Below, piece by piece: positions 1,714 to 6,904 of a stretch of 64,000 nt of DNA. Numbering within the stretch: the stretch's first letter is position 1; each line of letters opens with the position of its first letter. A program made the position numbers and the translations under genes. Source of the DNA: Candidatus Magasanikiibacteriota bacterium (lineage in GTDB: Bacteria > Patescibacteriota > Patescibacteriia > Magasanikbacterales > GWA2-37-8); assembly GCA_016182085.1 (NCBI GenBank), contig JACOYB010000004.1, forward strand, positions 211,923-275,922, read 5' to 3'. Under the pieces are notes generated by a model. That model did not search any database. It was given only the letters and a program-made list of their open reading frames with translations, and had not been told where the DNA came from.

Positions 1714-1723
1714 AAATCGAAAC

Positions 1724-1766
1724 ACCTTCATGCAAATGATGGTGTTTTCGTGTAAGGTTACAGGTG
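1724..1766. repeat. hairpin repeat (aacaccTtcatgCaaatgatggtgttttcgtgtaagGttacag), copy 1, directly 3' of tRNA-Glu
   Basis: Near-identical copy at 4274-4316. Contains the perfect inverted repeat AACACCATCAT-gtaa-ATGATGGTGTT. Confidence 0.7.
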
Positions 1767-1844
1767 TAGTTGTATATGTGGCTACAACTTGTTGCTAGTT
1801 AAGGTATATGTTATTCTTAATTTAAGATTTTTAATCAAAATTTT

Positions 1845-2405
1845 ATGAATATGCGCGAAAGAGGAGGTCGTAGACAGAATGAGGCGCAGATGATTAAGGC
1901 AGAAATGGATAGTGATAATGAGAAGCATAACCCAAGTTGGGAGGAGTTAGAGAAAGAGGATATTTTAACTAAGCAAAAGGCGGAAGAGGAAAAGTTAAAA
2001 ACTAAACAAATAGAAGAGCAAAAGATAGAGCGGGAGAAGTTGTTGATTAAACAATTTGAGCAGTTGATAAAAAAATATCTTCAGCTTGTCCAAAAGTATA
2101 AAGCTACAGGTGAAATAATTGATGATAAGTTAAAAGATGAATTAATCCAGGATAGCCAAAGTATTTATCAGCAACTACTGAAATCGAAAGGACTGTTTGG
2201 TTATAATGGGGATGAATTCCTTTCTCTTCTGGGAAGAGCTTATAAGAACGTGGCAAAGCCAACAGCAGATGAAAAAAATTCCATTCTTTTTGCAAGAAGA
2301 AAAGAATCTTCAACTACAGAAGATGAAAATATTATAATTGGCAGGTATGTTGATGAAGGAATGGATTTGTTCTATGGTGATGTGATAGTAGGCTTACCTC
2401 ATTGA
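1845..2405 (+). CDS. hypothetical Lys/Glu-rich coiled-coil protein; low GC; first cassette of the array
   Basis: 186-aa ORF with host-like composition, followed by 33-bp repeat copy 1. Confidence 0.45.
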   Translation: MNMRERGGRRQNEAQMIKAEMDSDNEKHNPSWEELEKEDILTKQKAEEEKLKTKQIEEQKIEREKLLIKQFEQLIKKYLQLVQKYKATGEIIDDKLKDELIQDSQSIYQQLLKSKGLFGYNGDEFLSLLGRAYKNVAKPTADEKNSILFARRKESSTTEDENIIIGRYVDEGMDLFYGDVIVGLPH

Positions 2406-2457
2406 TGCTACGTATTAATAAGCTGGAATGGTTTATTGTGACATTATTAGATAGCTA

Positions 2458-2493
2458 GAATAAAGTTTGCCAAGTGTCTCGATTAACCCTACG
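2458..2493 (+). repeat. 33-bp cassette-boundary direct repeat, copy 1 (AAAGTTTGCCAAGTGTCTCGATTAACCCTACGG)
   Basis: Five copies in the same orientation, at 2458, 4231, 4983, 5546 and 6284. Confidence 0.9.
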
Positions 2494-2496
2494 GAT

Positions 2497-2531
2497 AAAA
2501 AAGACTCCAAATTTATAGGAGTCTTTTTTAT
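2497..2531 (+). terminator. rho-independent terminator-like hairpin
   Basis: AAAAAAGACTCC aaatttat AGGAGTCTTTTTT. Confidence 0.6.
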
Positions 2532-2547
2532 TTTAAAATAAACAATT

Positions 2548-2576
2548 GACGTGTGTTTCTATGTATGTTTAAATTG
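2548..2576 (+). promoter_or_regulatory. sigma70-like promoter ahead of purB
   Basis: TTGACG, 17 nt, near-consensus -10 TTAAAT. RBS GAAAGAAGG sits before the ATG at 2642. Confidence 0.4.
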
Positions 2577-2641
2577 CCATAATTCTGGCCAAAAGCCAGG
2601 CAACAGATTTCAACCAAGCGTACATCGAAAGAAGGCTTGTT

Positions 2642-4081
2642 ATGTCGAGCGACACCTCCCGTTTCCGTCACCCGCTTACGACCCGCTACACCTCGGACGC
2701 CATGCAGGCGCTCTTCTCCGAGGACAAGAAGTTCATGACCTGGCACGACATCTGGATCGTGATCGCGCAGATCCAACAGGCCCTCGGGATCCCGATCACC
2801 GATGGGCAGATCGGCGAGATGGTGGCGGCACGTGGTCATATCAACTACCCGCTCGCTGCCCGTCTGGAGAAGGAGAAGAAGCACGACGTGGTGGCACATG
2901 CCGGGGCGTTCGGGGCGGATTGCCCCAATGCGCAGGCGATCATTCATTACGGCGCGACGAGCTGTGAGGTCACGGACAACGCTGACCTCATCATCATGCG
3001 GGAAGCGCTGGATCTGATCTGCGTTTCTATTGCCAAGGTGATCAACCGGCTGAGTCGCTTCGCTGTACAGTACAGCAGCCTGCCAACGTTGGGTTACACC
3101 CACTTCCAGGCTGCACAGCTCACCACCGTGGGCAAGCGTGCCTGCATGTGGCTGCAAGATCTCGTGATGGATCTCGCGGAACTGGAACGGCTTCGTGCCG
3201 GACTTCGTTTCCGGGGCGCCAAGGGTACCACTGGTACCCAGGCGAGCTTTCTCGAGATCTTTGATGGCAATCACAAGAAGGTGGAAGAACTCGAATCCCG
3301 CTTCGCGGCGGCGTTCGGTTTCAATCACATTTTCGCCATCACTGGTCAGACCTACACGCGTAAGCAGGACTCGGTCGTGTTCCATGCGCTCGCCTCGCTG
3401 GGTGCCACCATCCACAAGATGGCGACGGATCTTCGCCTCCTCGCCCACGAGAAGGAGATCGAAGAACCGTTCGACAAGGATCAGGTGGGCTCTAGTGCCA
3501 TGGCCTACAAGCGCAATCCGATGCGCTGCGAGCGTGCCTGCGGCCTGGCCGAACTGCTCATGAAGTACGGTGGTGTCGGCGTTCACATTCACGCTGATCA
3601 GTGGATGGAACGTACGCTAGATGACAGCGCCATTCGACGGATTGCCATCGCCGAAGCGTTCCTCCTCGCCGACGCGATCCTTATGATCATGCAGAACGTC
3701 TGCGAGGGGCTGGTCGTCTACCCCAAGGTCATCGCACGGAATATTCGGGAGGAGCTGCCATTCATGGCCACCGAGAACTTCATCGTCGCCATGGTGAAGA
3801 AGGGTGGCGATCGTGGGAAAGTCCACGAGCGGATTCGTGTCCACAGCCAAGCCGCTGCACGACGAGTGAAGGAAGAAGGGCTCGATAACAATCTCATCGA
3901 TCTCATCCGGGTTGATTCGTACTTCAGCCCAATCCATGACGAGCTCGATGAGCTCATGAATCCGATCACGTTCATCGGCCGCGCGGCGGAGCAGGTGGAT
4001 CAGTTCCTGGAGACCCAAGTGAACCCGGCCCTCAAGCCCTACCATCAATGTCTCGGCGGAGCTGCTCAGCTCAACGTCTGA
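2642..4081 (+). CDS. purB: adenylosuccinate lyase, eukaryote-like PurB/ADSL clade; very high GC and GC3
   Basis: Fumarate-lyase superfamily motifs GSSAMAYKRNPMRCE and LPTLGYTHFQAAQLTTVGKR. Long collinear similarity to human ADSL and B. subtilis PurB. About 62 % GC, with third codon positions almost all G/C. Confidence 0.9.
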   Translation: MSSDTSRFRHPLTTRYTSDAMQALFSEDKKFMTWHDIWIVIAQIQQALGIPITDGQIGEMVAARGHINYPLAARLEKEKKHDVVAHAGAFGADCPNAQAIIHYGATSCEVTDNADLIIMREALDLICVSIAKVINRLSRFAVQYSSLPTLGYTHFQAAQLTTVGKRACMWLQDLVMDLAELERLRAGLRFRGAKGTTGTQASFLEIFDGNHKKVEELESRFAAAFGFNHIFAITGQTYTRKQDSVVFHALASLGATIHKMATDLRLLAHEKEIEEPFDKDQVGSSAMAYKRNPMRCERACGLAELLMKYGGVGVHIHADQWMERTLDDSAIRRIAIAEAFLLADAILMIMQNVCEGLVVYPKVIARNIREELPFMATENFIVAMVKKGGDRGKVHERIRVHSQAAARRVKEEGLDNNLIDLIRVDSYFSPIHDELDELMNPITFIGRAAEQVDQFLETQVNPALKPYHQCLGGAAQLNV

Positions 4082-4128
4082 TCTGTTCAACTAGTTCGCT
4101 TCACCTAACCGTGGTGGGGTGATCTTTC

Positions 4129-5612: not shown

Positions 5613-5622
5613 GTTTATCATG

Positions 5623-5651
5623 TTGACATAGAGTGCAATTTATGCTATATT
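5623..5651 (+). promoter_or_regulatory. sigma70 promoter
   Basis: TTGACA, 17 nt, TATATT. Confidence 0.5.
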
Positions 5652-5869
5652 ATTTTGTTCTCCTTCGGAGAGCCTGTCTCTGTGTGGGACAGTCAGGGTA
5701 GCGCATAAAAATTTATAAAACAAAGCTATGAGTAGTAGGCCCCCTGTCTAATTAATTTGGGGCTAAGTAAACGAACTATTTTTGTTTGTAGAGCGTTGCC
5801 AAAACCATCAGAACAACCATCTACCCCCTAAGTTTGAAAACTCTGGGGACTTGCCGAATGAGGTGCGTC

Positions 5870-6178
5870 ATGATGTTTGCTCCATGTTACCTTGCGGACA
5901 AATTCGGTGGTGGATTCAACGCCACCGAGCAGGATCACTGGCTGGTCGTACGCGGCCTGCTCATCATGTGGATCCGGGATGCTAATCCCGAAGGGGATTG
6001 GTACCAGCATCTCTCTCGTGCGGTCAACGAGACGAACCGGGTTCTTCGGTTGCTGGGTGTTCCAGACCCCAAGAAGGCTCTCCGTCCGTCCGCCGAACTG
6101 TTCGGCCACTACCACAACGAGGTGTCCAAGCAGTGGGACTGGCTGTACCAGTTGGCCCCCAACGGCTGGGGTCGCTAA
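5870..6178 (+). CDS. hypothetical protein (103 aa) in a GC-rich cassette
   Basis: ORF in the 5834 frame. The most plausible start is ATG 5870, with GAGG 6 nt upstream. About 60 % GC. No recognisable family. Confidence 0.4.
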   Translation: MMFAPCYLADKFGGGFNATEQDHWLVVRGLLIMWIRDANPEGDWYQHLSRAVNETNRVLRLLGVPDPKKALRPSAELFGHYHNEVSKQWDWLYQLAPNGWGR

Positions 6179-6248
6179 AGACGACCGGTGATTGCCCGCA
6201 CCTTAATCTGGCAAGCGACCGAACGAGCGCCTCTCGTTCAATGAACAA

Positions 6249-6282
6249 AAGCAGTCTTTAAGAAAAGGCTGTTTTTGTTTTA
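6249..6282 (+). terminator. terminator-like hairpin
   Basis: AAAAGCAGTCTTTaagaaAAGGCTGTTTTTGTTTT. Confidence 0.45.
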
Positions 6283-6283
6283 A

Positions 6284-6318
6284 AAAAGTTTGCCACCTGA
6301 CTCGATTAACTCTGCGGC
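6284..6318 (+). repeat. 33-bp cassette-boundary repeat, copy 5 (degenerate)
   Basis: aaaaagtttgccaCCtgActcgattaacTctGcgg. Confidence 0.8.
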
Positions 6319-6409
6319 CTTAGGACATGTAGAATTCATCTTTCTAAAAAATGTATGATTGAATATTCCGGTAATTTCTGGTATTGTTTCTGTGTAATTA
6401 CCATTACAT

Positions 6410-6706
6410 ATGCAAAAAGATTTTAACTATTATAATAATAAAGTACTCGATTTTTATGATAAGAAAATTTTTCGTGTTCGTTTAAAAGTTACGAAGTATT
6501 TTTTAATGATAGTGGGCCCGTTTAGTTTGCTTTGGGGATTTTTTGATTTTATACAGCTTTTAGGAGATCGGGTTGCTCCCGAACATATTGCAGACAAAGA
6601 GAGTGATGTGATAATTCGGATTGGGACAGGCGCTGTACTCATCTTAATCTGGTTTATTTTTTTTGTTATCCTAGATAAGGATAAGTCTGAGACATACAGA
6701 CAGTAA
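6410..6706 (+). CDS. hypothetical small membrane protein (two predicted TM helices); low GC
   Basis: 98-aa ORF with two hydrophobic segments. It lies inside a disrupted P-type repeat unit. Confidence 0.45.
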   Translation: MQKDFNYYNNKVLDFYDKKIFRVRLKVTKYFLMIVGPFSLLWGFFDFIQLLGDRVAPEHIADKESDVIIRIGTGAVLILIWFIFFVILDKDKSETYRQ

Positions 6707-6713
6707 CAGGTGT

Positions 6714-6772
6714 GAACAAAAAAGCAGCGCAACAAGCGACTGTTCTTTTGTTTTAATCTAACATTAGGGTTC
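6714..6772 (+). repeat. right half of the P-type repeat unit
   Basis: tgaacaaaaaagcagcgcaacaagcgactgttcttttgttttaatctaacattagggtt matches 5043-5100. Confidence 0.7.
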
Positions 6773-6904
6773 TTTTTATTTATATTTTATAATTATTTTA
6801 TCTGTTCTCTAGGAAAATGGGGATAAGGTTGCATTTATACGGGAGTCTAGCCTGGCGTGGGGCAAAAAGCGTGCTATAATATAGAAAATTTATTTTTATA
6901 CTAT

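Follow-up and report, generated by a model that had tools for sequence, protein, structure and literature searches.

The DNA analysed here, a stretch of 64,000 nucleotides (nt) from a Candidatus Magasanikiibacteriota bacterium (assembly GCA_016182085.1, contig JACOYB010000004.1, positions 211,923 to 275,922 of the forward strand), is referred to below as the window; coordinates are those of the window unless another locus, designated by an L number, is named. The window carries an array of gene cassettes directly behind a tRNA-Glu(TTC) gene (1641–1713, + strand, detected by ARAGORN and Rfam), the 3′ end of which (...GGGGCTACA) constitutes the left boundary of a variable island. Five copies of a short motif split positions 1716–6764 into six units, each containing one open reading frame (ORF) or one toxin-antitoxin (TA) pair, and all the features of the array given below lie on the + strand. 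A previous sequence-only reading had proposed at this place a tRNA-adjacent, repeat-bounded cassette array with cargo of mixed origin and a TA module; the repeats, the GC content at third codon positions (GC3) and the protein family matches confirm this picture. That reading had counted five units and overlooked a sixth one, that of ORF7 (6410–6706).

The 33-nt sequence AAAGTTTGCCAAGTGTCTCGATTAACCCTACGG is found with 0 mismatches at positions 2462 and 4984 and with 3 mismatches at positions 4236 and 5547, and matches were obtained in 0 of 100 shuffled controls; a fifth copy, at position 6285, differs from it by 5 mismatches. All five copies are on the + strand, in the same direction as tRNA-Glu. 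The five co-oriented direct repeats of 33 bp reported earlier are therefore present, with starts that were off by 1–5 nt. The full conserved element is slightly longer, ~34 nt, and consists of an A-run (AAAAA) followed by GTTTGCCA-NN-TGTCTCGATTAAC-CCTACA. We named its copies R1 (2460–2494; A-run and GTTTGCCAAGTGTCTCGATTAACCCTACGG, 0 mismatches, nhmmer score of 44.4 bits), R2 (4234–4268; ...AACCCCACCA, 3 mismatches, 42.1 bits), R3 (4982–5016; 0 mismatches, 45.4 bits), R4 (5545–5579; GTTTCCCA variant, 41.8 bits) and R5 (6282–6317), the copy farthest from the tRNA and the most decayed, which retains 23 of 27 consensus positions. The copies are spaced by 563–1774 nt, with genes inside, and a profile made from all copies detected none in the 64-kb window outside 2460–6317. 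The motif has no secondary structure (minimum free energy of 0) and no dyad symmetry beyond chance, the best pairing (8/15) being equalled by 46% of shuffles.

Several identities were considered for the motif and discarded. A coding C-terminus (frame ...KFAKCLD*) does not fit, as the upstream open stretches are short and inconsistent and R5 bears an in-frame TGA. The motif does not correspond to a known RNA family or to a tRNA: no Rfam match was obtained for it in the window or in 12 loci, and no tRNA model match at the motif copies at E≤1. As an attP site of viruses it was rejected after 0 matches in IMG/VR viral contigs. A sigma-70 promoter (TTGCCA-17-TACAAT) is disfavoured as a general identity, as its spacer shows the same degree of conservation as the hexamers, the −10 boxes of the window copies are poor and the transcription start would fall within a terminator; such a role is possible in some copies. 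Finally, ends of the oriT, IS200/IS605 or Helitron type need a conserved hairpin, and the hairpin differs at each motif copy.

The first cassette contains ORF1 (1845–2405), a K/E-rich orphan of 186 aa with 35% GC, which is spanned by read-level contig L020 and has no family match in Pfam, NCBIfam or PADLOC. The second carries purB (2642–4081), encoding an adenylosuccinate lyase with the Pfam Lyase_1 and ADSL_C domains (TIGR00928, 379 bits for an NCBIfam equivalog cut-off of 326), preceded by a 5′ module (2495–2575) made of terminator hairpin T_b (−18.4 kcal/mol) and the promoter TTGACG-18-TAAATT; this promoter and the purB 5′ untranslated region (5′UTR) are conserved in L025. The PurB sequence of L001 is 100% identical; the nearest relative is 75% identical, followed by proteins of Planctomycetes and Myxococcales and eukaryotic adenylosuccinate lyases at 57–64%. 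PurB is of foreign origin. The third cassette (4366–4960) is the TA unit, in which a promoter (4366–4394) is followed by the antitoxin (4427–4702) and toxin (4706–4960) genes, 3 nt apart and in the gene order of type II TA systems. The toxin scores 29.4 bits with TIGR02385 (RelE/StbE; cut-off of 27.9) and also matches Pfam ParE_toxin and a RelE-like toxin of PHROGs, and the antitoxin has a weak RelB/DinJ match, below the cut-off; the cargo identities given earlier therefore stand, the antitoxin being the least secure. No database record of the toxin protein was retrieved when population variants of it were sought. Cassette 4 (5126–5398) comprises a promoter (5126–5154) and ORF5 (5189–5398), an orphan of 69 aa with no family match in Pfam, NCBIfam, PADLOC or PHROGs. 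Cassette 5 (5584–6280) begins with terminator T_e (5584–5611), continues with a promoter (5623–5651), a long 5′UTR and ORF6 (5870–6178), a GC-rich orphan with 3 homologs among 5.8e9 proteins, and has terminator T_f (~6244–6280) at its 3′ end. Cassette 6, a low-GC unit between the last repeat and the conserved flank, contains ORF7 (6410–6706), a small membrane-type orphan of 98 aa and 33% GC; read-level contig L033 covers ORF6, R5 and ORF7. PADLOC and PHROGs returned nothing on the function of the orphan cargo.

Three of these genes deviate strongly in composition, with GC contents and GC3 values of 59% and 0.75 for purB, 53% and 0.79 for ORF5 and 59% and 0.72 for ORF6, against a GC3 of 0.27–0.50 in the remaining window genes checked. 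The contrast described earlier is thus real, although GC3 is not near saturation and ORF5 lies below the 58–62% GC range that had been given. Most cassettes have a strong promoter of their own, matching the sigma-70 consensus at 12/12 positions in the TA unit, 12/12 in the ORF5 unit and 11/12 in the ORF6 unit; the promoter of the purB unit matches at 9/12.

A strong hairpin stands behind every motif copy, and R2, R4 and R5 are also directly preceded by one. The earlier statement that each unit ends with a terminator and the repeat does not apply to the ORF1 and TA units, in which the hairpin lies behind the repeat instead. Directly behind tRNA-Glu is module X1 (1720–1768), composed of terminator hairpin T_a and CGTGTAAGGTTACAG (repeat family D5), and a 90% identical copy of this tRNA-Glu trailer, X1′ (4274–4322), is present behind R2 (BLAST, 93% over 44 nt, E = 5e-15). 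A 106-nt module, D2, made of the right arm of a palindrome, a terminator and the motif, occurs in both the purB and the ORF5 unit (94% identity). In the purB unit, palindrome P (4129–4186) is a bulged hairpin: its outer stem (GAGATCTCC/GGAGATCTC) is conserved, its inner stem covaries, the bulge measures 5 nt and the loop is rich in AT; its DNA fold has an energy of −13.9 kcal/mol (z-score of −5.9), and the alignment with L007 and L025 displays compensatory changes in the inner stem. It is followed by terminator T_c (4193–4228; inverted repeat I10), which is part of D2. The second D2 copy (5439–5539) comprises P′ (5439–5497; z-score of −7.0) and T_c′ (5504–5539), so that the two bulged palindromes of ~60 nt reported earlier are both upheld by folding. 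Behind R3, a segment made of Xm, T_d and AACATTAGGGT (5017–5099; repeat families D1, D6 and D14) duplicates the right end of the array (6318–6345 and 6713–6770).

With its TA cassette and its cargo of mixed GC content, the array has the look of a sedentary chromosomal integron. In integrons, the attC site is an imperfect palindrome of 57–141 bp with mutually pairing R″ (RYYYAAC) and R′ (GTTRRRY) boxes; an intI gene and an attI site beside the first cassette are required for a complete integron, and not for a cluster of attC sites lacking an integrase (CALIN). Zero R″/R′ pairs 50–150 nt apart were found on either strand of 1714–6780. The repeat reads GTTTGCC and GATTAAC, neither of which fits an R box, there is no folded attC at the repeats, which are unstructured, and no intI gene. 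The sequence-only reading was right to see no canonical attC in the repeat, and its suggestion of an integron or CALIN is abandoned. An assembly chimera or an engineered insert, also envisaged there, fares no better: three contigs of an independent read-level assembly (Logan, SRR12113430) are 100% identical to positions 700–2485, 2465–4190 and 5492–6804, cross the joins between GC-rich and AT-rich DNA and break only at repeats; comparison with plasmids, vectors and phages gave nothing for the island except weak matches to the purB coding sequence; and the architecture recurs in metagenome-assembled genomes (MAGs) from independent projects, as described below. A canonical integron array or CALIN, an assembly chimera or an engineered insert are thus hardly credible explanations.

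Hairpin P is found behind three unrelated GC-rich ORFs: purB, ORF5 and a 116-aa ORF of L007. Its positions in other loci are ~5143–5215 (−) in L007 and 4166–4240 in L025, and the bulge, on one arm only, is of 4–5 nt. The lack of R boxes shows that P is no attC; it might act as a second recombination element, or at the RNA level, in connection with foreign cargo. A second type of imperfect palindrome (CAYCCGAGCTYACACARC...loop...), common to two genomes, is located just behind the motif and its terminator (L021 16855–16925, native + strand, equivalent to L008 ~7262–7322; L004 ~5306–5365, motif-oriented). In L021/L008 it stands at the 3′ end of a GC-rich gene of the opposite strand, and the L021 copy, the only one folded, folds weakly (z-score of −1.7).

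The limits of the island were defined by comparison with L021, the contig of L008, which comes from a close relative. Upstream of the array, tRNA-Glu forms a conserved divergent pair with tRNA-Met(CAT) (618–692, −; ARAGORN and Rfam), and this pair also precedes the arrays of L005, L006, L008/L021, L009 and L010/L013; in L006 and L009, small GIY-YIG genes are located between its two members. L021 and the window are collinear, with 92–96% identity, until position 1715, which is 2 bases beyond the annotated tRNA-Glu end. The right island edge, with terminator T_d′, spans 6713–6764, and collinearity restarts at position 6765 (AGGGTTCTTTTT...). Between these breakpoints, the motif is the only sequence that the window (5,050 bp) and L021 (3,122 bp) have in common: the cargo has turned over completely. 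The interval singled out by the sequence-only reading, 1714–6780, hence matches the variable island almost exactly. At the right end, the duplicate of T_d and AACATTAGGGT, including ~6 nt of conserved core, sits inside the array beside R3, and the TAGGGTT of the right boundary is the reverse complement of AACCCTA in the motif.

The motif was then sought with a degenerate 23-nt pattern in species-representative genomes and metagenome contigs, and the loci were searched with a profile (nhmmer). It is present in nine genomes of the Candidate Phyla Radiation (CPR) in the species-representative collection and in eight metagenome contigs, several of which come from Hainich groundwater; a tenth genome match, in an Acidobacteria MAG of 57% GC, looks like chance. 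The CPR matches include Parcubacteria and Saccharibacteria, as well as several MAGs that are otherwise labelled and yet have CPR synteny. Contigs L005–L010 and L003 are tagged as uncultured Gammaproteobacteria or Candidatus Udaeobacter, have 37–43% GC and share the TsaD-tRNA-DUF1003 synteny of Magasanikbacteria; these labels look wrong, or the contigs look mis-binned. In each positive genome, the motif is confined to a single contig or locus, with unrelated flanks and a different hairpin behind it. One locus per genome with unrelated flanks rules out a dispersed repeat of the repetitive extragenic palindromic (REP) type, a genome-wide scatter that the sequence-only reading had named as a refutation of its proposal.

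Co-oriented arrays were identified in L010/L013 (4 copies), L005 (3 copies and a degenerate fourth), L006 (3 copies), L021 (2 copies) and L009 (2 copies), and L011, from Saccharibacteria, is a probable array with 2–3 copies. In six genomes the arrays are downstream of tRNA-Glu and co-oriented with it, within a frame made of DnaE, TsaD (−), tRNA-Met (−), tRNA-Glu (+), variable genes with motifs and, further on, DUF1003 (−). The cargo elsewhere is mostly composed of orphans and lipoproteins, and also includes HEPN, XRE with ImmA/IrrE, Schlafen/AlbA_2 and RhuM-Fic/DOC genes, which indicate an addiction/defence theme; GC-rich cargo is found in the window, L007 and L021. L034 and L035/36 lack the motif despite the common tRNA-to-DUF1003 frame. 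This patchy distribution, combined with a motif identity of at least 90% across very distant lineages, argues for horizontal spread with the cassettes rather than for a vertically inherited regulatory site. In five of six arrays, the motif copy farthest from tRNA-Glu is the most decayed (P ~0.016 under random order, a value that is only rough because some of the compared arrays are related). This distal decay fits an array that would grow from the tRNA side.

The most informative feature of these arrays is the precision of their junctions. The 3′ ends of tRNA-Glu (GGGGCTACA) and of the motif (AACCCTACA) have a sole contiguous match, CTACA (~5–6 nt). Module X2 (ATCATGAAAAGCATCC...) begins at position +1 after CTACA both behind tRNA-Glu, in L006 and L014, and behind motifs, in L006, L008 and L010 (93–100% identity over 32–50 nt, E of 1e-12 to 1e-18). 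Module X1 is behind tRNA-Glu in the window, L005 and L010, and behind the motif at R2 of the window and at the degenerate fourth copy of L005. The tRNA-Glu 3′ end and the motif are thus interchangeable left partners at a base-precise junction. For two independent module families, X1 and X2, the point of attachment is thus identical to the nucleotide behind either of two unrelated left partners, a result that is hard to obtain via homologous recombination and is the trace expected of site-specific, or at least microhomology-directed, exchange. Modules are also reassorted at the motif: the left module, P with T_c, is continued by X1 at R2 and by T_e at R4; the right module T_e is preceded by four unrelated sequences, those of the window, L007, L022 and L028; and modules X3 and X4 reassort there as well. 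Finally, entire units are shared between genomes. The ORF6 unit (motif, T_e, promoter, 5′UTR, ORF and T_f) has 88% nt identity in L007, where the neighbouring core genes are at 68–73%, and ~82% in L028–32, where a motif-like copy precedes it and a truncated copy follows it. The purB unit (promoter, 5′UTR and hairpin P) is found at ~75% identity in another AT-rich genome, L025–27, without the 34-nt motif.

We consider that these results are best accounted for by a site-specific cassette array anchored on tRNA-Glu, with exchange at or next to CTACA and a recombinase acting in trans, and we judge this reading about as probable as all its rivals together. It corresponds to the "different site-specific cassette system" that figured among the options of the sequence-only reading. 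In the proposed mechanism, the 34-nt motif would be the recombination site borne by each cassette, and the tRNA-Glu 3′ end (...CTACA) the chromosomal entry, or primary attachment, site. A cassette would span from just behind one CTACA through the CTACA of the next motif, and would contain a terminator hairpin, usually a promoter, an ORF or TA pair, sometimes a 3′ hairpin of its own, and the motif. Exchange at or next to CTACA would add new cassettes on the tRNA side and shift the older ones outward, where their motifs decay, and the leading hairpin of the incoming cassette would then terminate the tRNA or the preceding gene. Since the locus has no gene for such an enzyme, a trans-acting one would be required.

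Several observations weigh against this reading. The first set concerns the enzyme. A domain scan of the 64-kb window, which covered ORFs of at least 120 aa other than the 2540-aa ORF at 43338–50960 (+), detected an integrase, recombinase, resolvase or transposase domain in no scanned ORF, in agreement with the earlier remark that no integrase is visible in the window; no integrase, resolvase or transposase was found in L021 (20 kb), L013 (11.5 kb) or the 8-kb loci either. The ~2.6 kb further upstream in L021, to DnaE, contain no recombinase domain, and a Pfam scan of 38 motif-neighbour proteins in other genomes yielded no recombinase and only TA, defence-type and orphan genes. Moreover, neither an excised circle nor an empty site was observed. 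The second set concerns the site and the island: (i) without dyad and without structure, the motif is unlike a classical two-armed core site and unlike attC; (ii) the right end of the island has no motif; (iii) the duplication across the right junction (5044–5099 and 6713–6770) needs another type of event, being beyond the reach of simple cassette insertion; (iv) L022–24 carry the motif with no tRNA-Glu nearby; (v) the kinship of some arrays tempers the decay polarity; and (vi) the order of the units across the 33–106-nt repeats is known from the MAG assembly alone.

In L025, the homolog of the purB unit has a serine recombinase gene ~1 kb away (357–1646, −). It encodes a large serine recombinase of 429 aa with Resolvase, Recombinase and Zn_ribbon_recom domains, which may mobilise the purB cassette there. 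It was rejected as the missing enzyme of the arrays: neither the window nor any motif-bearing locus contains a homolog of it, and the motif-like stretch that adjoins it lacks significance, as 28% of random windows score equally.

The strongest competitor of site-specific exchange is a hotspot kept by homologous recombination without any dedicated recombinase, in which the motif would be a portable 34-bp homology with another primary role, such as a 3′-UTR or terminator-associated element. DNA acquired by natural transformation would replace what lies between the conserved tRNA-Glu/TsaD side and a motif copy, and small circles would integrate Campbell-style at the motif or an X module. That a recombinase was found at no array is what this explanation would predict; genes for ComEC and for a competence-type metallo-beta-lactamase are present in the window; on the left, the breakpoint falls where a highly conserved gene ends, a natural stop of homology; one crossover inside X would give the direct duplications X1/X1′ and X2/X2′; and the duplication that spans the right junction resembles unequal crossing-over. 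However, the tRNA end and the motif share only ~5 nt, yet X1 and X2 join both at the same point. A functionless sequence is not expected to be at least 90% identical between Magasanikbacteria and Saccharibacteria while absent from near relatives. A role in RNA is unlikely at R2, R4 and R5, which stand behind strong terminators, followed at R2 and R4 by a second one. Lastly, neither the strict co-orientation with tRNA-Glu nor the decay polarity is predicted by homologous recombination. We therefore hold this explanation to be unlikely, though it is the one to be taken most seriously.

The role in RNA deserves separate consideration, as the motif might be part of a small RNA (sRNA), or of an RNA derived from a 3′UTR, with a single-stranded seed and a terminator, the array being a by-product. 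About 30 unstructured conserved nt followed by a terminator hairpin is the layout of many seed-plus-terminator sRNAs, and the copies of Saccharibacteria have ~45 more conserved nt upstream (L011 ~20–95 and ~3015–3090, L012 1–54, L018 ~195–268; motif-oriented) with promoter-like hexamers (TTGACC-16-TAAAAT in L018). Within this extension, a 14-bp palindrome, ATTTTGTACAAAAT, lies ~22 nt upstream, and the Saccharibacteria element may be longer or transcribed. On the other hand, the lack of any Rfam match and the complementary targets in the window, which are not above chance, speak against such an RNA; several motif copies immediately follow efficient terminators and lack a promoter, and the equivalence with the tRNA-Glu end and the tRNA-bounded cargo turnover would be left unexplained. 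We regard an RNA-level element as improbable, if less so in Saccharibacteria.

Another possibility is that these loci are decayed, integrase-carrying tRNA islands related to tycheposons or phage-inducible chromosomal islands, the repeats being att scars left after integrase loss. The tRNA adjacency, the co-orientation of the repeats and the distal position of the older copies are as in tycheposon islands. Partial 3′ fragments of other tRNA genes also lie beside motifs, on the opposite strand, in L004 (~5145–5180) and L005 (~5765–5800; both motif-oriented); they look like scars of classical tRNA-targeting elements inside the same islands. However, only ~15 of 34 motif positions match tRNA-Glu when right-aligned by eye, and only CTACA is contiguous; none of nine loci contains an integrase, an integrase fragment or a replication module; and the units are single genes of 0.5–1.8 kb, far below the size of such elements. 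Decayed islands of this kind are, in our view, quite improbable.

Host enzymes might also be involved, in that the motif would be a dif-like site at which elements of the type that exploits Xer recombination (IMEX), or dif modules, are integrated by the host XerC/D. One locus per genome, a site of ~30 bp, direct repeats around small modules and the absence of an element-encoded recombinase would all suit this idea. Against it, all 4-kb bins of the window and both array sides of L021 (the left side representing only 2.4–2.6 kb) have a positive GC skew, with no inflection at the array, the downstream genes are overwhelmingly on the + strand, and the motif has no two inverted binding arms. A dif-like site is accordingly very improbable.

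Apart from the island, the window is an ordinary CPR chromosome segment, with genes for TsaD, RNase Y, TruB, initiation factor IF-2, leucyl-tRNA synthetase (LeuRS), ComEC, NusA, YidC, GroEL, release factor RF-1, Sua5 and KsgA. It contains a cluster resembling a type IV secretion system (T4SS; 52126–61426) with PrgI-like, TraC/VirB4-like and TraG-type ATPase genes, a T4SS pilin gene (11632–12165) adjoining DUF1003, comEC (25274–26848) and a gene for a competence-type protein with a metallo-beta-lactamase fold (28304–29173); it is possible that these constitute a DNA-uptake machinery bearing on the arrival of cargo. The LeuRS (19235–22765, +; 1176 aa) contains two insertions between its editing and anticodon-binding domains, a NUDIX domain and a serine-hydrolase/abhydrolase domain. 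Relatives (L021, L022, L034) have at the same place an abhydrolase only, NUDIX and HAD, or HAD and abhydrolase, so that an essential enzyme seems to have a site at which the inserted domains vary. In the near-identical strains L022–24, a gene for 187 aa in L022 and L024 (11423–11986, +) is replaced by a gene for 228 aa in L023 (11259–11945, −); this single-gene swap, ~1 kb from DUF1003, is a second small variable slot without association with the motif. L022–24 also carry a gene similar to bAvd, an accessory gene of diversity-generating retroelements, near IF-2.

Surveys of CPR/Patescibacteria have reported islands and horizontal transfer, and no mechanism (PMC12455944). The architecture described here is real and recurrent, and the literature that we searched on integrons, cassettes and islands in Patescibacteria gives no account of it. 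More tentatively, and with doubt prevailing, the arrays might represent a gene-capture platform of CPR bacteria that has gone undescribed, present in Magasanikbacteria and other Parcubacteria and, as a variant, in Saccharibacteria. It would pair an asymmetric site of ~34 bp with the tRNA-Glu 3′ end by means of a recombinase encoded elsewhere, maybe of a new type, and build polar arrays of self-expressed one-gene cassettes with imports from GC-rich donors, maybe hosts or neighbours: an independently evolved functional analogue of the integron in ultra-small symbionts. CPR bacteria have tiny genomes and depend on other cells, and the route by which they gain genes is poorly understood. The motif would provide a tag with which cassettes and variant junctions can be harvested from metagenomes, and would render the question of acquisition directly testable. 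A defined acquisition site would offer genetic tools a natural landing pad, where hardly any such tools exist for these organisms, and would be an independent example for the debate on the origin of cassette systems and of cassettes. GC-rich cargo behind consensus promoters of the CPR type is a record of gene flow from unrelated bacteria; PurB, for instance, is an enzyme of purine nucleotide synthesis, a pathway missing in many CPR. Should the site be only a homology anchor, the locus would still be a well-defined hypervariable hotspot, if a less remarkable one.

How do these arrays compare with known systems? As in sedentary chromosomal integrons and CALINs (e.g., the Vibrio superintegron and its VCR repeats), co-oriented short repeats, near-identical within a genome, separate cassettes that mostly contain one gene; TA modules and orphans of mixed composition are frequent cargo, and turnover among relatives is rapid. 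Growth is apparently from one end, as in integrons, and the integrase is not nearby, as in CALINs. However, the site is conserved, asymmetric, unstructured and devoid of RYYYAAC/GTTRRRY, whereas attC is a palindrome defined by its structure; entry is at a tRNA 3′ end rather than at an attI site beside intI, and IntI was seen in none of the loci; and, unlike integron cassettes, most cassettes of the array have a strong promoter of their own. IMEX at dif and the pdif modules of Acinetobacter are small, often carry TA genes and use sites of ~28–30 bp with host enzymes acting in trans; dif and pdif have two inverted 11-bp Xer arms around a 6-bp spacer and are located on plasmids or at the terminus, with successive pdif sites in alternating orientation. 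The arrays are likewise made of small modules bounded by ~30-bp sites with no recombinase encoded by the element, but the copies of their asymmetric motif all point the same way, and no inflection of the GC skew is seen there. In the minimal mobile elements of Neisseria, varied genes occupy one slot between conserved flanks in a competent host, without a dedicated recombinase; here, in contrast, an internal repeat bounds each cassette and the tRNA-end junction is precise. The many dispersed copies of REP elements, bacterial interspersed mosaic elements or miniature inverted-repeat transposable elements are not observed, nor are the 25–40-nt repeats with regular 25–60-nt spacers of CRISPR arrays. 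Tycheposon islands of Prochlorococcus carry a tyrosine recombinase and replication genes and have partial tRNAs as flanks (bioRxiv 10.1101/2020.12.28.424599). With them the arrays share a location next to a tRNA in streamlined genomes, as well as a cargo of plug-in cassettes and accumulating remnants; in tycheposon islands, each further integration at the site displaces the earlier elements inward, as it would in the proposed mechanism of the arrays. The island abuts a tRNA and its most decayed copy is distal, as are the older elements of tycheposon islands, but its repeat is not a partial tRNA, its units are single genes, and neither an integrase nor a replication module is present. In its workings the system comes closest to integrons and tycheposon islands, but it has the defining sequences and genes of neither.

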